A stretch of 62,792 nt of DNA, from contig JAGPFL010000002.1 in the NCBI GenBank assembly GCA_018056545.1, positions 1 through 62,792 on the forward strand. The letters are read 5' to 3'. A program made the position numbers and the translations under genes. Shown here piece after piece: positions 1-50,608 of the stretch. Under the pieces are notes generated by a model that saw only the letters and a program-made list of their open reading frames with translations, was not told the DNA's origin and ran no database searches. The stretch comes from Syntrophobacterales bacterium (lineage in GTDB: Bacteria > Desulfobacterota > Syntrophia > Syntrophales > UBA8958). How positions within the stretch are numbered: position 1 is the stretch's first letter; every line of letters begins with the position of its first letter.

Positions 1-578
1 CCCGGGGGCTTAAGTGGTGAATCAGGCGGGCGAAAAGTTCCTTACCGGTACCGCTCTCCCCCTGGATGAGGATGGTCGCCCGACTGGCGGCCACCCGGCC
101 GGCCATGTTGATCAGGGCTTCCATTTTGGGGCTCCGGTAAACGATGGAATCCGTGGTCACCCCCTTTTCCCGGAGTTCCTTTTTGAGGATCTCGTTTTCC
201 TTGATCAGGGTACGGCGCTCCGCCACCCGTTCCACCAACAGGAGCAATTCGTCGAACTCTATGGGTTTGGTGATGTAGTCTATGGCCCCGGCCTTCATGG
301 CATCCACGGCGGTTTCGATGGTGCCGTAGGCGGTGATGATCACCACGTCGATCTCCGGATTTATCTCCTTCACCGTCTGGAGGACCTGCATGCCGTCCAT
401 GCCGGGCATCTTGTAGTCCAGCAGCAGGAGATCGAATTGTCCGCTCCGGACCATGGCCACCCCCTTCTCGCCGTTCTCCGCCTCCTTCACGAGATGCCCC
501 TCCTGGATCAGAAAATCCCTGAGCATCTCCCGTTGCGATTGTCCGTCCTCCACGATGAGGATATTCAGCGCCTTCATA
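1..578 (-). CDS. sigma-54-dependent response regulator (NtrC-type enhancer-binding protein), 5' part only; continues past window start
   Basis: Not in the ORF track because there is no stop in the window. The reverse strand from the ATG at 576-578 reads MKALNILIVEDGQSQREMLRDFLIQEGH...DLLLLDYKMPGMDG (receiver domain). It continues ...ATILIQGESGTGKELFARLIHHLSP (AAA+ Walker A typical of sigma-54 activators). It starts 11 nt after the kinase stop. Confidence 0.85.
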
Positions 579-589
579 TATTTGCTCCC

Positions 590-2401
590 TCAGGAAGTCT
601 TGTTCCCCGGCTTTTCCGTGGGCAGGAGGATCTCGAAAGTCGTCCCCTCATCCTTCCGGCTCGTAACCCGGATTTCCCCACCGTGACCGCGGATGATCTC
701 ATGGGACAGGGGAAGTCCCAATCCCAGACCTTTTTCCTTGGTCGTGTACTCGGGGCTGAAGATGTGTTCCATTTCCTCCGCCGTCATCCCGCAGCCGGTG
801 TCCACAATGGAAATTTTGATCCAGCCCTTCTTTTCCGGACTCACCGACAGGGTCACCCGCCCCCCGCCGGAGATGGATTCCACGGCATTCTTGATGAAGT
901 TCAGGAGCGCCTGCTGGAGTTTGTCCATATCCATGGGAATCACCGGCGAAGGTTCGGACCAGCGCGTTTCCAGGACTATGCCCTTGGCGGCGGTCTCTTC
1001 CCGCAGGAGATTCACGATCTTCTGGAGGACGTCCGTCACGGGGTATTCCCGCAGATCGAGACGACGGCTCCGGGAAAAGGTGAGAAATTCTTCGATGATG
1101 CCGTTCAGGCGACGGATCTCGTCCCTGATCACCCCGGTGATGGTCTGGAATTCCCGCTCCTTGTGCGCATCGGCGGGAATGAAATCCCTTTTGAGGCGTT
1201 GGCTGGCCATGCTGATGGCATTGAGGGGGTTGCGGATCTCATGGGCGACCCCGGCAGCCAGTTGACCCAGCGCCGAGAGCCGCTCCGCCTTTTCGAGACG
1301 CCGCTCCATGGTGACGATGCCCTCCAGATGACGGTTCTGATTCATGTACAGGACCCACATGGACAGAAAGGCGATCAGCATGGTGAGCCCCATGAAAATG
1401 GCGATATTCTTCCCGTTTTCCGCCAGAATCCGCTCCATCTCCTCCCGCTCCAGACCCATCCGGGCGATGCCCGCCGTCTGGTTGTTCAGATGGACCGGCA
1501 CGGCGACATCGAGGAGGGCCCGATCCCGATAGACAACCTTTCTGCTGGCGATGGGCCGACTGCCGGCCAGTAGTTCGGGAATAGGCATCTCTCCGGCCTG
1601 CCACTTTTCCGGCAGATCACCGGCGCTGGCCAGAACCTTATCCCGGGTGTCGGTGATCATGAAATACGCCAACCCCTGACTGCGACCCCCTCCCAGTTCC
1701 TGCAGGGCCTTTTCCACCGAGACCTTCGTGCCCCAGAAACGCAAACCGTCGGGATCGAGGGCGATGATGACGGTGCCGCTCCCATCCTTGCGTCGCAAGG
1801 CGATAAACCCCGCCTTCTTCTCCTTGCCCAACTGGTTCAGGAGTTCCAGGGTAAGTTTGGGGGCGGGATTCCCCTCCACAAGACCCGCCGGCAAGGCGCG
1901 GCTCTGAAAGATGGGCTTCCCCTGGCGATTCAGGACGGCGATCAACCAGATGCCTTTCTCTTCGGCGTATTTGCGCAGATAGGAACCGCTCAGCCGCTCC
2001 TTCTTCCAGTGCAGATCCACCTCCTGCCCCAACTGCACCAGGGCGTTGATGAGGAGTTTCTGGGGCGAAAAGGCCTCCTGCTCTACGGGGACGAAAGGAC
2101 GTTTTTCTTCCCGCTGGGAAGCCTGGACCAGGTTGTTGAGGTTTTCCTGGGCCAAGCGCTGCACCACCTCCACAATCCCCTGGGCGCGGTTTTCCAGGAT
2201 GCCTACCAGGGTGTTGTCCAGACGCCGCAGATCCATAATCCCCATGATGAGGATGAGGAGGAGAAACACCACACAGACAATGGCCACGGCAATAGGTTGG
2301 AGAAAGGGCCTGCTTTCCTTTGCCTTCCGGTCCTGCCAGACGATTTTTTCCGACGGGGTCACTATTGTATCGTTCCGCTTGCTCTGAGGATTTTTTGGCA
2401 A
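590..2401 (-). CDS. membrane sensor histidine kinase (two TM segments, ~290-aa periplasmic domain, HisKA + HATPase_c)
   Basis: 603-aa ORF with H-box LAAGVAHEIRNPLNAI and ATPase motifs DTGCGM and GLGLGLPL. A hydrophobic segment IAVAIVCVVFLLLILIMGI and a second TM lie before the H-box. Start is uncertain (TTG 2401 or GTG 2362). Confidence 0.85.
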   Translation of the reverse strand: MPKNPQSKRNDTIVTPSEKIVWQDRKAKESRPFLQPIAVAIVCVVFLLLILIMGIMDLRRLDNTLVGILENRAQGIVEVVQRLAQENLNNLVQASQREEKRPFVPVEQEAFSPQKLLINALVQLGQEVDLHWKKERLSGSYLRKYAEEKGIWLIAVLNRQGKPIFQSRALPAGLVEGNPAPKLTLELLNQLGKEKKAGFIALRRKDGSGTVIIALDPDGLRFWGTKVSVEKALQELGGGRSQGLAYFMITDTRDKVLASAGDLPEKWQAGEMPIPELLAGSRPIASRKVVYRDRALLDVAVPVHLNNQTAGIARMGLEREEMERILAENGKNIAIFMGLTMLIAFLSMWVLYMNQNRHLEGIVTMERRLEKAERLSALGQLAAGVAHEIRNPLNAISMASQRLKRDFIPADAHKEREFQTITGVIRDEIRRLNGIIEEFLTFSRSRRLDLREYPVTDVLQKIVNLLREETAAKGIVLETRWSEPSPVIPMDMDKLQQALLNFIKNAVESISGGGRVTLSVSPEKKGWIKISIVDTGCGMTAEEMEHIFSPEYTTKEKGLGLGLPLSHEIIRGHGGEIRVTSRKDEGTTFEILLPTEKPGNKTS

Positions 2402-2603
2402 TGCTGTCGCATCATAGGCGATTCAAAGGGAAAGTCAATCACAAATCTCGTTTCGACATTTTTGTCGCCCTTGGAAGAAAATGGTCATGCAGCTTAAACC
2501 ATCATTATTATTCATAAATAATCGAATACCCGGTTTACCGGCGACAATCATTGCCGCCTTCCCATGGTGACCTCCCTTCCCCAGACTGAATATATTTCAA
2601 CAA

Positions 2604-2616
2604 TATCAATATATTA
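2604..2616 (+). promoter_or_regulatory. IHF-like binding site
   Basis: TATCAATATATTA fits WATCAANNNNTTR. It lies in an AT-rich stretch about 30 bp upstream of the -24 element at 2642. Confidence 0.35.
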
Positions 2617-2641
2617 CAAACGCAAAAACGGTGATGATTTT

Positions 2642-2657
2642 TGGCATAGGATATGCT
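2642..2657 (+). promoter_or_regulatory. sigma-54 (-24/-12) promoter
   Basis: TGGCATAGGATATGCT has GG at 2643-2644 and GC at 2655-2656 with the canonical spacing (consensus TGGCAC-N5-TTGCW). Confidence 0.55.
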
Positions 2658-2667
2658 TGTAAAGAGG

Positions 2668-2776
2668 GTAAGAAAACTAATTACTCGGTTGAACAAACGG
2701 GCATGATCAGCCGACAGTAAAAACCCATATTCCTCCTGGACGCGGGGAGACGACAAGTCTCCCCATTTTTTTTCTT
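2668..2776 (+). ncRNA. candidate sigma-54-dependent small RNA (~105 nt)
   Basis: The span runs from the predicted TSS (~12 nt after the -12 GC) to an intrinsic terminator. The only ORF is 5 codons. There is a 5' stem TCGGTTGA(2685-2692)/TCAGCCGA(2707-2714). This is followed by a single-stranded A/U-rich region with CCUCC at 2732-2736, then the terminator. Confidence 0.45.
2744..2776 (+). terminator. rho-independent terminator
   Basis: GGGGAGAC-GACAA-GTCTCCCC is followed by ATTTTTTTTCTTTTTT. Confidence 0.7.
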
Positions 2777-3027
2777 TTTTCCGGGACGGAGGGGGTGGCG
2801 GAAAATGCCTTGCACACTCCTCGCCGGTTGGCAACGGTAGCGAGTTCTTTGTCCAGCGGTTCCATGAATATTTCGTCAAGCTCTCGAATATTTTACCCTT
2901 CTTTGTTCCCGCCCGGGGGCTTCAAGGTGTTTGAAGTATAAGAAGTGGTGCTTTTGACGACATTGCCGTTTCCCTGATGACCTGCTATAAATACATAGAC
3001 TATCACCAACCTTCACAAGGAGGACAC

Positions 3028-3492
3028 ATGAAAACATTGAGGATTGTGTTTGCTGTCGTCACGGTTTGCCTGTTGGCGGCCTCCCCGGCCGTCGCCGGCG
3101 ATTTCGACTGGGTCCGCGATTTCAACCTGCAGGCCCAGGCGGATCCCTCCGGTTTTCGCGCGAAACTGGCCACACGCTTCCAGATCGGCGATGCCCGCAT
3201 CGATGCCGTCATCGGTAATGTAGCCAAACCGGCGGACGCCTATATGGTTCTGCGGCTGGGTGAGATGTCCCATCACCCTCCCGAGTACGTCCTGTCCAAG
3301 TATAAGGCGGAAAAGAAAAAGGGCTGGGGCGCTCTGGCCAAAAGCCTGGGCATCAAACCCGGGTCAGCGGAATTTCACGCCCTGAAACGGGGACAGGATC
3401 TCTATGGCCCCGGCGACGGCAAGGGCGGCGGCAAAGGCAAGGGAAAAGGCAAGGACAAGGGAGGCAAAGGCAAGGGAAAGAATCAGGATTAA
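3028..3492 (+). CDS. secreted hypothetical protein with Lys/Gly-repeat C-terminal tail
   Basis: AAGGAGG RBS lies 7 nt before the ATG at 3028. Signal peptide MKTLRIVFAVVTVCLLAASPAVAG. The C-terminus is GKGGGKGKGKGKDKGGKGKGK. The ORF-track start at 2977 is probably too far upstream. Confidence 0.6.
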   Translation: MKTLRIVFAVVTVCLLAASPAVAGDFDWVRDFNLQAQADPSGFRAKLATRFQIGDARIDAVIGNVAKPADAYMVLRLGEMSHHPPEYVLSKYKAEKKKGWGALAKSLGIKPGSAEFHALKRGQDLYGPGDGKGGGKGKGKGKDKGGKGKGKNQD

Positions 3493-3542
3493 ATCTCCGG
3501 GATCCCCATCTGTTTGCCAAGTCGAAGCGGAGATGAACATCA

Positions 3543-4898
3543 TCAGGGTTTTCCCGACATTTTTTCCCGCAGGCGGCGCCAGTACGCCAGGCGTTCGCCG
3601 ATGGTCTTTTCGTAGCCCCGGTCCGTAGGGACGTAAAAACGGGCATCTGCCGGCGCCAGTTTCTCGGGCAGATAATCCTGGGGCGCGTAGGCGTCCCGGT
3701 AATCGTGGGCGTAGCGGTAATCCCTTCCGTAGTCGAGCTCTTTCATCAACTTGGTCGGGGCGTTGCGGATATGGAGGGGCACGGGCAGGGTCCCCGTCCG
3801 GCGGATCGTTTCCTGCACCCGGCCGTGGGCGACATACAGGGCATTGCTCTTCGGGGCCGTGGCCAGATAGACCGCCGCCTGAACGAGGGCCAGTTCCCCT
3901 TCGGGTGCACCGAGAAAATGAAAGGCCTGCATGGCGTCCAGGGCCAGGGTCAGGGCCCGGGGATCCGCGTTGCCCACATCTTCGGAGGCGAAGCGGATCA
4001 TGCGCCGGGCGATGTAGAGCGGATCCTCCCCGGCCGCCAGCATCCGGGCCAGCCAGTAGATGGCGGCATCCGGATCGCTTCCCCGCAGGCTTTTATGGAA
4101 GGCGGAGATGAGATTGTAATGCTCCTCGCCCGCCTTGTCGTATCGCAACGCCTTTTTCTGCAAGGCCCGGGCGACCATTTCCCTGGTGAGGAGGCGTTGT
4201 CCCGCGTCGGCATCCGTCTCGATGTCCGGACCCGCCAGCAGGGATGCCGCGGCCTCCAGGTTGTTCAGGGCGGCCCGGGCGTCGCCGTCGGCGGACCAGA
4301 CAATCGCTTCCAGGGCCTCCGGCTCGATTTCCAGGCCCGCCGCCCCCAAACCACGCTCCTTATCCTGGAGGGCATGGCGGATCATGATCGCCAGTTCTTC
4401 CTCGGTGAAGGGCTTGAGGACCATGACCCGGGAGCGGGACAGGAGCGGGGCGATGACCTCGAAGGAGGGATTCTCCGTGGTGGCCCCGATGAGGGTGATG
4501 AGGCCGCTTTCCACATGGGGGAGAAAGGCGTCCTGCTGTGCCTTGTTGAAGCGATGGATCTCGTCCACGAAGAGGATGGTTTTCCTCCCCTGTTGATCCC
4601 GCCGGACGAGGGCCTCCTCGACAACGGCCCGGATCTCCTTCACCCCGGACAACACTGCGGAAAAACTCGTGAAATGAGAAAATGTCTCGTGGGCGATGAT
4701 CCGGGCCAGGGTCGTCTTACCCGATCCCGGCGGTCCCCAGAAGATCATGGAGAACAGCCGGTCCTCGGCGATGGCCCGGCGCAGGAGGCTGTCCTTGCCT
4801 AACAGATGCTTCTGTCCCACATATTCATCCAGGCGCCGGGGCCGCATCCGGTCCGCCAGGGGGCGGAAATCCCCTGCAACCATCTTTTTATCTCCCAT
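3543..4898 (-). CDS. rarA: replication-associated recombination protein A (AAA+ ATPase RarA/MgsA)
   Basis: 451 aa. Walker A is GPPGSGKTTLARII and Walker B is ILFVDEIHRFNK. The C-terminal part carries the MgsA-type motifs YDKAGEEHYNLISAFHKSLRGSDPDAA. Confidence 0.9.
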   Translation of the reverse strand: MGDKKMVAGDFRPLADRMRPRRLDEYVGQKHLLGKDSLLRRAIAEDRLFSMIFWGPPGSGKTTLARIIAHETFSHFTSFSAVLSGVKEIRAVVEEALVRRDQQGRKTILFVDEIHRFNKAQQDAFLPHVESGLITLIGATTENPSFEVIAPLLSRSRVMVLKPFTEEELAIMIRHALQDKERGLGAAGLEIEPEALEAIVWSADGDARAALNNLEAAASLLAGPDIETDADAGQRLLTREMVARALQKKALRYDKAGEEHYNLISAFHKSLRGSDPDAAIYWLARMLAAGEDPLYIARRMIRFASEDVGNADPRALTLALDAMQAFHFLGAPEGELALVQAAVYLATAPKSNALYVAHGRVQETIRRTGTLPVPLHIRNAPTKLMKELDYGRDYRYAHDYRDAYAPQDYLPEKLAPADARFYVPTDRGYEKTIGERLAYWRRLREKMSGKP

Positions 4899-5021: not shown

Positions 5022-5291
5022 TTATTTCCCTTTCACGGCTTTAGCCCGAGCGATCAGATCGAGGAGGCTGGTCAGTTTGTCCGGCGGGGTCCGGCGACAG
5101 AAAGCCTCCCAGTCCTCCGGCGACAGGACCTCCCGAAGAAAGTCCTCCACGGGAAAAAAAACTTCCCAGCAGAGGATCACCCGGGCACAGGGCAGATCCC
5201 CCCCCTCCCGTCGGCAGTAGGCAAAGGTGAGCTCATGCCCGAGCTTGGGACAGCGGATTTCCCTGTCGTCATAGCTTGTCATATCGCTCAT
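5022..5291 (-). CDS. small Cys-rich hypothetical protein
   Basis: Open frame MSDMTSYDDREIRCPKLGHELTFAYCRREGGDLPCARVILCWEVFF... I recognise no family. Start is chosen at the internal Met; the ORF track extends to 5369. Confidence 0.4.
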   Translation of the reverse strand: MSDMTSYDDREIRCPKLGHELTFAYCRREGGDLPCARVILCWEVFFPVEDFLREVLSPEDWEAFCRRTPPDKLTSLLDLIARAKAVKGK

Positions 5292-5393
5292 TTTGTATCC
5301 CTCTCCCCCCCCCCATCCGCATCCGTCACCTGCGACATTACCGCAAAATGTCACCGCTGTCTGCAACAAATTCGCCGGACGGCGGGAAACGAC

Positions 5394-5430
5394 AAAAAAA
5401 CAGGGGACAGATCAAAGCGTCTGCCCCCTG
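5394..5430 (-). terminator. rho-independent terminator downstream of trpB2
   Basis: The minus strand reads CAGGGGGCAGA-CGCTTTGA-TCTGTCCCCTG (11-bp stem with one G.U) followed by TTTTTTT. Confidence 0.7.
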
Positions 5431-5468
5431 CTCACTTAAAAAAAACGGGACGTGCCACCGGTTTTTCC

Positions 5469-6830
5469 CTACGGTTTCGGGAAGCCCTCGATAGCCCGGA
5501 GCGCCCGGGCGATTTCCTCGTCGGGCAGTTCATGGGGGATGAGTTTGCCCGACAGGTAGGCCTCGTAGGAGGCCAGATCCACCATCCCGTGACCGCTCCA
5601 GTTGAAGAGGATGACCTTCTCCTTCCCCTCCTCCTTGGCCCGCCGGGCCTCATCGACCACGGCGGCGATGACGTGATTGGTCTCCGGGGCGGGGATGAAC
5701 CCCTCGCTCCGGGCCCACATGACGCCGGCCTGGAAGGTGTCGAGCTGATGATAGGCCCGGGCCTCCACAAGATTTTCCTTCACCAGGTGGCTGACGATGG
5801 GGGCCATGCCGTGATAACGAAGGCCGCCGGCGTGGATCGGGGCGGGCACGTAGTCGTGTCCCAGGGTGTACATGGGCAGCAGCGGCGTCTTTTTCGCCAG
5901 ATCGCCGAAGTCGTAGGCGAAGGGACCCCGGGTCAGGGTGGGACAGGCGGTAGGTTCGGCGCCGACGATTTTGATGTCCCGACCGTGAATCTTGTCGCAG
6001 ACGAAGGGGGTGGAGATTCCGGCAAAATTGCTGCCGCCGCCGGCGCAGCCCATGACCACGTCGGGATAGAGGCCGAGCTTGGCGAACTGTTTCTGGGCCT
6101 CGAGACCCACGATGGTCTGGTGGAGAAGGACGTGGTTCAAGACGCTGCCCAGGGAATAGCGGGAACCGGGATGGGACACCGCATCTTCGATGGCCTCGCT
6201 GATGGCGATGCCCAGGCTTCCCGGAGAGTCGGGATGCTCCGCCAGGACGTTCCGGCCGGCCTCGGTGATGTTGCTGGGACTGGGGATACACTCCGCCCCC
6301 CAGACGCTCATCATCATCCGCCGGTAGGGTTTCTGCTCGTAACTGACCCGGACCATGAAGACCCGGCATTCCAGGCCGAACATCTGACAGGCCATGGACA
6401 GGGCGCTGCCCCACTGTCCCGCGCCGGTCTCCGTGGAGAGCCGCTTGATCCCGAAGGCCTTGTTGTAATAGGCTTGGGGAACGGCGGTGTTGGGCTTGTG
6501 GGAACCCGCCGGGCTTACGCCTTCGTTTTTGTAGAAGATCTTCACCGGGGCATCGAGAAGTTTCTCGAAATTGCGGGCCCGACAGAGGGGCGAAGGACGC
6601 CAGAGCAGGTATTTCTCCAGGACTTCTTCGGGAATGTCGATCCAGCGCTGGGTGGTGGCTTCCTGTTCGATGAGATTCATGGGGAAAATCGGCGCCAGGT
6701 CCTCGGGTTGGACGGGTTTTCCTGTGGCCGGGTGGAGAGGCGGACGCATGGGGGTAGGCAGGTCCGCCTGGATGTTGTACCACTGCCGGGGAATCTCCTG
6801 ATCTTCCAGCAATACCTTGATGGGTTCCAT
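5469..6830 (-). CDS. trpB: TrpB-like PLP-dependent enzyme (tryptophan synthase beta chain, TrpB2 type)
   Basis: 453 aa. It has the long N-terminal extension typical of TrpB2, the PLP-lysine context [14 protein letters not shown], and GGGSNFAG. Confidence 0.88.
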
Positions 6831-6896
6831 AGTATGTCTCCTTTACAAATTATTGTCCGTGCAAAACCCCGCCGCGTCTCCGACGATGCGAGGCAA

Positions 6897-6926
6897 ATAA
6901 AAAAGCCATGGGTCATTCCCATGGCT
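6897..6926 (-). terminator. attenuator terminator in the trpB2 leader
   Basis: The minus strand reads AGCCATGGG-AATGA-CCCATGGCT followed by TTTTTATTTG. It ends ~65 nt before the trpB2 ATG (6830). Confidence 0.7.
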
Positions 6927-6950
6927 TGCTTTTCCGTTTTCGTCATGGGA
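6916..6950 (-). promoter_or_regulatory. antiterminator alternative hairpin of the trp attenuator
   Basis: On the minus strand TTCCCATG (6943-6950) can pair with CATGGGAA (6916-6923). That second segment overlaps the 5' arm and loop of the terminator, so the two structures are mutually exclusive. An upstream GGGAAG-GAC-CTTCCC hairpin can sequester the TTCCC segment. Confidence 0.5.
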
Positions 6951-6984
6951 AGGTCCTTCCCTGCCCACGACCTATGTTGACGTC

Positions 6985-44659: not shown

Positions 44660-44675
44660 TGGCATATCTGTTGCA
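44660..44675 (+). promoter_or_regulatory. sigma-54 (-24/-12) promoter
   Basis: TGGCATATCTGTTGCA is a near-perfect match to TGGCAC-N5-TTGCA. It lies ~100 nt upstream of the ATG at 44774. Confidence 0.65.
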
Positions 44676-44773
44676 GTTCCCGGCGCAGTTCAAAACATTT
44701 TTACTTCCCGTGATACATATTCTGTGTTATGGGAGGAAAAATTATAAGCCAAGATACGAAAGGAGAAGAAAAG

Positions 44774-45151
44774 ATGTTAGGGAAATTTGGAAAGAAGTTG
44801 TTAACTCTCATGACGGCAACAGCGGCGGTACTTATGTCCTCCCCGGTCGTTTTTGCTGCGGAAGCTCTCCCCGCTGCCGGCGATTCGTACGTTAAGGTGA
44901 TTTATGCGGTAGGCGCCATGGTCGCCGCCGGATTCGCCATCGGCCTTGGCGCCATCGGCGCCGGCGCCGGTATCGGCAATGCCGCCAATGGGGCCTGTCA
45001 GGCCGTCGGAAGAAACCCCGGGGTTCAGGGTAAGATCATGACCGTGATGCTGGTCGGTATGGCCATGGCGGAATCCGTTTGTATTTATGCCCTGGTTGTG
45101 GCGCTCGTTCTTCTCTATGCCAACCCCTACGTAAAGTACTTTTTGGGTTAA
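44774..45151 (+). CDS. ATP synthase subunit c paralog (copy 2) with N-terminal signal-like extension
   Basis: 125 aa from the ATG at 44774 (AAAGGAGAAG RBS). It reads MLGKFGKKLLTLMTATAAVLMSSPVVFA-AEA, then the c-subunit hairpin GAIGAGAGIGN...GRNPGVQG...MAMAESVCIYALVVALVLLYANP. Confidence 0.8.
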   Translation: MLGKFGKKLLTLMTATAAVLMSSPVVFAAEALPAAGDSYVKVIYAVGAMVAAGFAIGLGAIGAGAGIGNAANGACQAVGRNPGVQGKIMTVMLVGMAMAESVCIYALVVALVLLYANPYVKYFLG

Positions 45152-49261: not shown

Positions 49262-49662
49262 AGGGATGTCCGAGGAGGTCGTAAGCCGAGTTCTGTTCCG
49301 GCCCAGGGTCGCCCCGGGACCGGCGATGATCATTCCTCTGGGACGGCGGTTGCCCGCCGCCTCAAGCAACCTACCCGAGAACATCGGACGGGCCGTCCTC
49401 GATCGTTCTCCTATTCGGTCTTGCTCCGGATGGGGTTTACCGTGCCTCCCCTGTCACCAGAGGAGCGGTGAGCTCTTACCTCGCCTTTTCACCCTTACCC
49501 GCCCGGAGTCATGCTCCGTGAAGCGGGCGGTATATTTTCTGTGGCACTTTCCTTAGGGTCGCCCCCAGTCGCCGTTAGCGACCATCCTGCCCTGCGGAGC
49601 TCGGACTTTCCTCCCGCCCGGATGTGCCGGACGGGCGATCATCTGACCTTCTCAGACATCGT
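49262..49662 (-). ncRNA. rnpB: RNase P RNA, bacterial type A
   Basis: The minus strand contains the universally conserved blocks GGAGGAAAGTCCGAGCTCC, GGTAAGGGTGAAAAGG, GGTAAGAGCTCACC and GGCACGGTAAACCCCATCCGGAGCAAG. It also contains GGGTAGGTTGCTTGAGG and ACAGAACTCGGCTTAC. P1 pairs GATGTCTGAGAAGGTC with GACCTCCTCGGACATC. Ends are approximate. Confidence 0.92.
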
Positions 49663-50532: not shown

Positions 50533-50608
50533 TGGTGGGCCCACCTGGGTTCGAACCAGGGACCTACCGGTTATGAGCCGGTGGCTCTGCCAATTGAGCT
50601 ATGGGCCC
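50533..50608 (-). tRNA. tRNA-Met (anticodon CAT), elongator type; an Ile2 (lysidine) identity cannot be excluded
   Basis: 76-nt cloverleaf GGGCCCA-TA-GCTC-AATTGGCA-GAGC-C-ACCGG-CTCATAA-CCGGT-AGGTC-CCTGG-TTCGAAC-CCAGG-TGGGCCC-A-CCA. The G1-C72 pair argues against an initiator. Confidence 0.9.

Follow-up and report, generated by a model that had tools for sequence, protein, structure and literature searches.

What is encoded in the interval between a sensor kinase gene and its divergent neighbour, where a sigma-54 promoter and a terminator appear to enclose no protein? The question is raised by a 62,792-nucleotide (nt) stretch of contig JAGPFL010000002.1 from a Syntrophobacterales bacterium, here called the window; all coordinates refer to this 62.8-kb sequence, whose G+C content is 57.5%. 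A first-pass annotation of the same letters proposed a stand-alone, sigma-54-controlled regulatory small RNA (sRNA) tied to the adjoining two-component operon, and this proposal is upheld by homologues in related loci, covariation, enhancer sites and the lack of a conserved open reading frame (ORF). The comparisons demonstrate a conserved, structured, non-coding and independently terminated unit, located behind what has every mark of a canonical enhancer-dependent promoter. Positions 2668 to about 2776 probably represent a stand-alone, trans-acting sRNA of about 105 nt, with the regulation and action described below taken together. Its identity as a stand-alone gene dependent on sigma-54 and a two-component system is very likely, and anti-Shine-Dalgarno base pairing as its main mode of action is close to evenly balanced, leaning slightly towards doubt.

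Within the window, all elements named in the first-pass annotation are present at the positions given in Table 1: an integration host factor (IHF)-like site, a -24/-12 element, about 105 nt without a meaningful ORF, a strong intrinsic terminator, a 5' stem-loop and an unpaired stretch carrying CCUCC. The promoter pattern TGGCAYN6TGCW is rare, with two matches in the window against 0.37 expected. The other match (TGGCATATCTGTTGCA, 44660-44675) is followed after about 55 nt by an ATP-synthase-c-like ORF (44729-45151) and may be another sigma-54 promoter. No ORF of at least 8 codons, with any start codon, is found within 2668-2773. The terminator consists of the hairpin GGGGAGAC-GACAA-GTCTCCCC at 2744-2764, with six G-C pairs in its stem, followed by A, T8 (2766-2773), C and T6 (2775-2780), and it is the sole terminator-like site between 2300 and 3200. 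The RNA of 2668-2776 has a predicted folding energy of -34.6 kcal/mol (z = -4.16), and none of 200 shuffled sequences is as stable. In this fold the 5' hairpin, first placed at 2685-2714, extends over 2681-2720, while the CCUCC region remains largely unpaired.

The unit is conserved in relatives. Kinase orthologues were taken from one genome per species, and all nine with 51-81% identity on genome contigs (loci L001, L002, L020, L003, L006, L004, L009, L005 and L007) have a homologue of 2637-2780 just upstream, on the opposite strand. Since the unit is kept next to the orthologous kinase in related genomes, its elements exceed what chance would provide. A DNA-pattern scan of metagenome contigs, defined as the promoter, a gap and then GGGCATGRTYRRCCGA, returned 78 loci, 76 of which are true homologues with the complete architecture. 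Six additional loci were fetched through their kinase proteins alone. Five of these carry the RNA, with covariance-model scores of 43-102 bits (83.7 bits for 2668-2774 of the window), and all five possess TGGCAY-N6-TGC, the distal activator repeat and CCUCCUG, in sequences that would not match the scan pattern; in the sixth (L163), the RNA is absent. Altogether 64 homologue sequences were collected from Syntrophales genomes and metagenomes, 63 of them distinct in the alignment named A4, and 15 are kinase-anchored, that is, found without the RNA sequence as query. The 64 share a common layout from promoter to terminator, with exceptions in single elements (for example in L004), and the kinase and regulator genes lie divergently upstream in nearly every locus with sufficient flanking sequence. 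Conservation in relatives had been among the checks proposed for the sRNA, and the outcome is a unit with covarying stems beside the orthologous kinase. Each locus holds one copy, no second copy being found in the window or in the other loci, and the covariance model has no match beside kinase relatives at 47% identity or below.

The family is not catalogued in Rfam 15. At gathering thresholds the whole window yields only an RNase P class A RNA (316 bits, 49267-49654, minus strand) and one tRNA (50536-50608, minus strand). For 2400-3100, with E values up to 10, only four unrelated matches of chance level appear, and eight other family members, with E values up to 1, give no relevant match. The literature search returned no report of a sigma-54 sRNA in Syntrophus.

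From 5' to 3', members of the family begin with about 15-25 nt of A-rich leader, followed by stem-loop 1, an A-rich spacer, a CU-rich element and the terminator with its U-tract. The arms of stem-loop 1 are UCGGUUGA/UCAGCCGA or UCGACUAA/UUAGCCGA, with GGGCA in the apical loop. Two of the three clades have a second hairpin, GAAGG...CCUUC, between the spacer and the CU-rich element, which is absent from the clade of the window. RNAalifold on a MAFFT alignment gave a poor consensus, in which terminator loops of unequal length were misaligned; it was replaced by a count on a named structure and by realignment to the covariance model. In the resulting alignment A4 (64 sequences), 84.3% of the cells are paired, compared with 77.1% in shuffles, and the covariation score is 0.275, compared with 0.168 in shuffles (reached by 0 of 500) and at most 0.148 when pairing partners are slid. 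Compensatory changes occur in 14 of the 25 pairs. Three pairs of stem-loop 1 covary, as GC/AU (28:17), AU/GC (35:19, with a single exception) and CG/UG/UA (30:27:5), and the structure-blind MAFFT alignment recovers a GC/AU exchange (26:15) together with CG/UG/UA at another pair. The terminator is still imperfectly aligned in the covariance-model alignment, and its hairpins were therefore tabulated directly: the 59 homologues of the first set contain 27 different arm pairs, and in 58 of them a perfectly paired stem of at least 6 bp, with at least five GC pairs, is followed by a T-run within 14 nt. No conserved ORF is present on either strand of the family, and an open antisense frame spans the unit in no more than 5 of 59 members.

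Across clades, both the CU-rich element and the loop with GGGCA are predicted to be exposed. No motif is more conserved than GGGCA, which is found in all 64 homologues, including the 14 of 14 obtained without GGGCA as a search criterion, and its loop has a predicted unpaired probability of about 0.9. Of 14 kinase-anchored members, 11 have YCCUCCUG as their CU-rich element, and the largest clade has CUCUUCUCUCCU at this place. In some members (L006, L096/L108, L131 and L116), CAUCCUCCUUUUU, CACCUCCUUUUU or CUCUCCUUUUU takes the place of a plain U-tract after the terminator hairpin, which puts an anti-Shine-Dalgarno sequence in the 3' tail of the sRNA. A hairpin with a CACCUCCUUUUU or CAUCCUCCUUUUU tail resembles the 3' end of 16S rRNA.

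Upstream of the promoter, the enhancer architecture is conserved as well. The distal repeat, CGACA-N4-TGTCG, starts about 191 nt (180-213) upstream of TGGCA in 51 of 55 loci, and the copy at 2454-2467 is the only perfect one in the window. The proximal repeat, CGACA-N4/5-TGCCG, lies about 103 nt (93-125) upstream of TGGCA in 36 of 55 loci under a strict pattern. For a loose pattern covering both sites, the background is 0.026 per 330 nt. Three loci (L002, L102 and L110) have both repeats about 20 nt further upstream (210-213 and 122-125 nt), with the helical phase kept, and in L002 a perfect palindrome of about 50 nt (CCATTACTTATGGTGGG...CCCACCATAAGTAATGG) immediately precedes the promoter. 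Between the enhancer sites and the promoter, 22 of 58 loci have a strict IHF consensus, usually 30-31 nt ahead of TGGCA, against a background of 0.0026 per 95 nt, and near-matches occupy the same place in many others. TGGCAY-N6-TGC itself is present in 14 of the 15 kinase-anchored homologues, for which the promoter was not used in the search; the remaining one, L004, has TGA at -12. The two repeats are likely binding sites of the adjacent NtrC-type regulator. From genetic linkage and the fixed enhancer geometry, we infer that this regulator activates the sigma-54 promoter. On the kinase strand, just past the distal repeat, TTGACW-N16-18-TAnnnT occurs in 46 of 54 related loci. As the kinase-regulator operon thus appears to have an ordinary sigma-70-type promoter, the sigma-54 promoter and its sRNA would be the regulated output, and the sRNA is most likely the regulatory output of the adjacent sensor.

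Table 1 Features of the sRNA unit and its surroundings in the window
Feature	Position	Strand	Remark
NtrC-type sigma-54 response regulator, 5' part	1-577	-	N-terminal 192 residues, REC + AAA+; cut by the window edge
Sensor histidine kinase	590-2362	-	HisKA + HATPase_c, weak sCache_3_2; annotated start 2362, alternative TTG 2401
Predicted sigma-70-type promoter of the kinase-regulator operon, TTGACT-N16-TATGAT	2411-2438	-	10 of 12 consensus matches
Predicted distal activator site, inverted repeat CGACATTTTTGTCG	2454-2467		About -210 from the predicted start
Predicted proximal activator site CGACAATCATTGCCG	2542-2556		About -122 from the predicted start
IHF-type site TATCAATATATTA	2604-2616	+	Exact fit to the consensus WATCAANNNNTTR
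Predicted sigma-54 -24/-12 promoter TGGCATAGGATATGCT	2642-2657	+	GG and GC at canonical spacing
Predicted small RNA	2668-2776	+	Start predicted from the -12 element, 3' end in the U-tract
Stem-loop 1, UUAC-UCGGUUGA ... UCAGCCGA-CA-GUAA	2681-2720	+	Predicted fold and covariation
GGGCAUG in/beside the apical loop of stem-loop 1	2699-2705	+	UG pairs with upstream CA
Single-stranded CU-rich element UUCCUCCUGG (predicted)	2730-2739	+	Anti-Shine-Dalgarno CCUCC at 2732-2736
Intrinsic terminator	2744-2780	+	8-bp G+C-rich stem, 5-nt loop, then A-T8-C-T6
Exported 154-aa protein, unknown family	3028-3492	+	Clade-specific insertion between sRNA and rarA; outside the unit
rarA/mgsA homologue, convergent	3543-4898	-	Conserved downstream neighbour of the sRNA

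The genes around the unit agree with this arrangement, and by its relatives the kinase places the organism in Syntrophales. The adjoining gene had been described as a minus-strand kinase starting at 2401; the kinase and its strand are correct, while the annotated start lies at 2362 and 2401 is an alternative TTG. The response regulator of the same operon, which has a sigma-54 interaction domain, was rightly named as the nearest enhancer-binding protein, and its full length, read on the 100%-identical contig L105, is 455 aa. Downstream of the sRNA, the next gene in about 38 of 58 loci is the convergent rarA, which ends -5 to +50 nt from the terminator. The 154-aa exported protein follows the sRNA only in close relatives of the window. 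It has a Gly/Lys-rich tail and 3619 homologue matches at E values up to 1e-3, and no Pfam or NCBIfam model matches it. In Syntrophus aciditrophicus SB its homologue stands behind an OmpA-like lipoprotein gene, far from such a kinase. The idea that this protein is a degenerate ZraP was rejected, as it has no similarity, matches neither database and is located elsewhere in S. aciditrophicus. On L105, from the strain of the window itself, the regulator gene is followed by a gene (3009-4877, minus strand) for a protein of 622 aa that carries a GT51 peptidoglycan transglycosylase domain at its C terminus; a link to the envelope through this gene was discarded, because it is absent at that position in 18 other loci.

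The kind of sensor involved is indicated by profile scores and by distant relatives. The kinase scores 226 bits with the NCBIfam AtoS model (cutoff 646) and 208.9 with ZraS (cutoff 479), the regulator 493.5 bits with AtoC (cutoff 714) and 453 with ZraR (cutoff 760). By these scores, the two proteins are relatives of ZraS/ZraR and AtoS/AtoC and not equivalogs. In E. coli and Salmonella, zinc and envelope stress lead ZraR to drive the divergent sigma-54 promoters of zraP and zraSR (PMC4987338). Both repeats recur beside distant kinase relatives (30-38% identity over the full length) in Desulfobacterales and Syntrophobacterales, again with a sigma-54 promoter that faces away from the kinase gene. 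What this promoter drives in those relatives is a protein of the ZraP/CpxP/Spy family with a signal peptide and with Metal_resist and LTXXQ domains; the divergent gene is of this type in L010-L014 and L017. In Syntrophus sp. SKADARSKE-3 (L165), it is the kinase operon that starts with a Metal_resist (ZraP-like) gene, of 141 aa (779-1204, plus strand), behind a near-perfect TTGACA-N17-TATGAT, with a 4-nt overlap with the kinase start, and the sRNA is still divergent, overlapping the end of rarA. The ZraP-like output of the distant relatives and the gene order of L165 mark the module as Zra-like, and a ZraPSR-type periplasmic or envelope-stress circuit is the probable setting. No LTXXQ or Metal_resist protein is encoded in the window. 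In two kinase relatives at 47% identity (L008 and L015), the enhancer repeats and the sigma-54 promoter are kept, and the RNA that follows is unrelated, free of ORFs and CU-rich. Upstream of the kinase gene at 4001 in L008, it contains UUUUCUCCUCCUUU and then a GGGGAGGUC hairpin without a U-tract; in L015 (2400-2620, minus strand), UUCCCUCCUG and AUCUCCUG lie in hairpin loops, and a FabK-like gene is situated about 330 nt downstream. The recurrence of CU-rich motifs in these two units hints that the CU-rich element is the functional part. The Zra-like nature of the sensor and the GGGCA apical loop, the most invariant element, are the two points at which the first-pass account was incomplete.

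In the proposed mechanism, the kinase would phosphorylate the divergently encoded NtrC-type regulator, which would then bind both inverted repeats, about 210 and 122 bp before the start. With the DNA bent by IHF at 2604-2616, the regulator would open the sigma-54 closed complex at the -24/-12 promoter, and the transcript would end at the intrinsic terminator. Most likely, the sRNA would act post-transcriptionally and in trans, on unlinked targets. CCUCCUG would occlude Shine-Dalgarno sequences (CAGGAGG) and so repress translation, and the GGGCA loop would add specificity, either as a second mRNA contact or by binding a protein. Features related to an RNA chaperone are limited to the U-tail of the terminator and the A-rich stretches.

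Several observations weigh against this mechanism or narrow its basis. The metagenome pattern demanded the promoter and GGGCATG...CCGA, which makes the invariance of these elements circular in that set, so that only the 15 kinase-anchored homologues count. The CU-rich element is not universal, L004 having none and one large clade having CUCUUCUCUCCU in place of CCUCC, and an anti-Shine-Dalgarno motif alone would confer low specificity. Covariation is absent from the GAAGG/CCUUC hairpin. In half of the family, stem-loop 1 is interrupted midway by a conserved A-C mismatch: columns 21/54 of A4 (G2687-C2711 in the window) hold a non-standard pair in 29 of 63 sequences, A-C in those inspected, and in the clade with A-C the adjoining pair changes from U-G to C-G. 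The start, the end and the sigma-54 dependence of the sRNA are all read from sequence, and it is linkage that points to the adjacent regulator as activator. One species (L086, L092, L120, L142 and L146) has the sRNA, the repeats and the promoter without an adjacent kinase; the activator must there act from elsewhere, or the linkage must have been broken recently. A 41-codon ORF and a GYD-domain gene stand upstream in place of the kinase in this species. The target search was null as well: across the window and about 1.3 Mb of flanking loci, sequences complementary to the loop or to the CU-rich element occur at chance level, lie inside ORFs or belong to the sRNA's own antisense strand. This search was confined to the window and the flanking loci, so its outcome reflects a limit of the data and is not evidence against action in trans.

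The individual matches illustrate this outcome. The complement of the stem-loop 1 loop has about 40 matches in the window at up to two mismatches. One, at the apparent start of the plus-strand ORF 5235-6980, was rejected because this 581-aa ORF only mirrors the opposite-strand gene of a TrpB-like PLP enzyme (5469-6830, minus strand; PRK12391, 737 bits), which also explains its apparent tblastn conservation. Another, at 45035, was rejected as it lies inside the ATP-synthase-c-like ORF. When the complement of each member's own CU-rich element is sought in its own locus, almost only the sRNA antisense is found, and the remaining matches are neither at start codons nor shared. Of the claim that the RNA has the usual layout of a base-pairing sRNA, the accessible and conserved motifs stand, while the CU-rich motif is missing from some members and no convincing target was found in the sequences searched.

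Among other explanations, the sRNA could be a protein-binding decoy or sponge, in which a protein recognises the GGGCA loop in the way that GlmY sequesters RapZ, the CU-rich stretch being incidental. GGGCA is the sole motif present in every member, and in an exposed loop; the loss of the CU-rich element in L004, its variation between clades and the lack of an mRNA target in the window or flanking loci point the same way. GlmY, the best-studied sRNA of the sigma-54/two-component kind, works by protein sequestration (PMC4152352). However, no candidate partner protein is linked to the locus, the repeated GGA-type motifs of CsrB/RsmZ sponges are lacking, and CCUCCUG is kept in most kinase-anchored members in a predicted single-stranded state. 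A conserved loop is, moreover, equally typical of a kissing-loop seed, and a decoy is on balance unlikely. A very small peptide, such as MISRQ from the AUG in GGGCAUG, is hardly credible as the product, even though this AUG lies inside the invariant motif and short ORFs of 4, 5, 9 and 11 codons begin there in several members. No Shine-Dalgarno sequence is suitably spaced from this AUG, the ORFs vary in length and sequence, AGG replaces AUG in L004, the window RNA contains no ORF of 8 codons or more, and the codons that come next coincide with the covarying 3' arm of stem-loop 1.

Two further explanations give the unit a role in cis, and both are very improbable. As a 5' leader, it would lend the sigma-54 promoter to the gene at 3028-3492, and its terminator would be a conditional attenuator. 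This would suit the clade of the window, where the same-strand exported-protein gene begins about 250 nt past the terminator, and L015, where a sigma-54 promoter at the same position precedes a protein gene by about 330 nt. Yet the downstream gene is confined to the closest clade, and its S. aciditrophicus homologue lies elsewhere, after the OmpA-like gene. In the roughly 38 of 58 loci where convergent rarA ends no more than 50 nt from the terminator, an attenuator would have no gene to control, and the promoter would drive the sRNA alone. The terminator is strong, with its 8-bp G+C-rich stem and T8, and no conserved anti-terminator exists, the CUCCU-GGGAG pairing suggested by RNAalifold being attributable to base composition. 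The first-pass annotation had already judged a mere leader attenuator unlikely; the convergent rarA is stronger evidence for this than the sigma-70 promoter it had cited for the downstream gene (TTGCCG-N16-TATAAA, 2964-2991), which is a weak match missed by the consensus scan and is not needed for the conclusion. Alternatively, convergent transcription or 3' antisense overlap could alter the termination or stability of rarA, whose stop codon the terminator abuts or overlaps in many loci (gaps of -5 to +50 nt), L165 among them. Against this, rarA is 650-2700 nt away in the clade of the window and several others, with the RNA unchanged, and one species (L086 and L146) has the sRNA with no detectable rarA within 1-3 kb. 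The overlap never extends past the terminator, and conservation falls on the 5' hairpin loop and the CU-rich element instead of the 3' end.

Beyond the trans-acting sRNA itself, a broader scenario can be put forward tentatively. In Syntrophus and Smithella, a Zra-type system may have swapped its single sigma-54 output, a ZraP-like chaperone, for an sRNA bearing the CCUCCU of the 16S rRNA 3' end. This sRNA would damp the translation of envelope and secreted proteins by competing for Shine-Dalgarno sequences, with GGGCA giving specificity for a target or partner; the literal hairpin-plus-CACCUCCUUUUU 3' tail of some members is in keeping with it. The scenario as a whole is rather unlikely. If it held, an RNA arm would be the main effector of a Zra-like response, which to our knowledge has not been described.

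Syntrophales such as Syntrophus and Smithella are key degraders of fatty acids and alkanes in methanogenic digesters and sediments, and we know of no characterised regulatory RNA from this order. The locus offers a defined and testable circuit, comprising a sensor kinase, an NtrC-type regulator, two enhancer sites, an IHF site, a sigma-54 promoter and an sRNA, which can be rebuilt in a heterologous host. A curated model of the uncatalogued family would improve the annotation of many metagenome-assembled genomes. Within Desulfobacterota, the same enhancer-promoter module appears to drive an sRNA in some members and a periplasmic ZraP/CpxP-like protein in others, a clear exchange between protein and RNA output. 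The significance is bounded by the kind of element, well known from GlmY, Qrr and Pxr, and by organisms that are hard to grow; the work extends an established theme.

The closest known systems combine an sRNA, a sigma-54 promoter and a two-component system, and the likeness to glmY beside glrKR and to pxr beside pxrRK, drawn in the first-pass annotation, fits the literature (PMC3045617, PMC5684412). In Enterobacteriaceae, the glmY gene adjoins a kinase and an NtrC-type regulator (GlrK/GlrR, also QseE/QseF), and its sigma-54 promoter needs the regulator at conserved upstream sites, with IHF between (PMC3045617). The unit in the window has the same composition: an sRNA beside a two-component operon, a sigma-54 promoter, upstream sites and an IHF site. 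The GlmY/GlrKR system is connected to cell-envelope homeostasis (PMC6075780). The differences lie in orientation, sites and product. The glmY gene precedes the kinase gene in the same direction (PMC8745638), whereas the sRNA gene here is divergent from its kinase gene. GlrR sites are TGTC-N10-GACA in three copies (PMC4987338, PMC3045617), unlike the CGACA-N4-TGTCG and CGACA-N4/5-TGCCG repeats. GlmY is a protein decoy without a CU-rich anti-Shine-Dalgarno element, and no GlmZ-type paralogue of the sRNA is found in the window or in the other loci.

In gene arrangement, the qrr1/luxO pair of Vibrionaceae is even closer than glmY and pxr. The qrr1 gene lies immediately upstream of and opposite to luxO, and the region between the two genes contains the sites for the activator and for sigma-54 (PMC8043402). 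Qrr1 and the predicted sRNA are both about 100 nt long and divergent from a two-component gene, and Qrr1 is a base-pairing regulator. LuxO belongs to a phosphorelay and not to a kinase-regulator operon, and here it is the kinase gene, not the regulator gene, that adjoins the sRNA; many vibrios have four or five qrr genes, compared with the single copy per sampled locus here. Pxr of Myxococcus is an sRNA of three stem-loops with a predicted sigma-54 promoter and enhancer region, beside an NtrC-like regulator and a kinase that control its synthesis (PMC5684412). It shares with the present sRNA the position next to such a regulator and kinase (pxrR/pxrK), and both organisms belong to the former 'deltaproteobacteria'. 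The pxr gene is located downstream of pxrR and not divergent from a kinase gene, and the control of fruiting-body development by Pxr is without a counterpart in syntrophs.

The sensor side of the comparison leads to ZraPSR, which likewise has a regulated sigma-54 promoter divergent from the kinase-regulator operon and whose models are, with AtoS and AtoC, the best NCBIfam matches of the kinase and regulator. Unlike in ZraPSR, the regulated product is an RNA and not ZraP, and the kinase operon would be transcribed from a sigma-70-type promoter and not from a ZraR-dependent sigma-54 promoter. Rfam 15, within the searches described above, gives no match to the GlmY/GlmZ, Qrr or Pxr families. Because no model matches, the regulator sites differ and the gene order is unlike that of glmY and pxr, the sRNA is not a member of the GlmY, Qrr or Pxr families. 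In conclusion, the predicted sRNA represents a new, uncatalogued RNA family, which is of the same known kind as GlmY, Qrr1 and Pxr and is linked to a Zra-like sensor.

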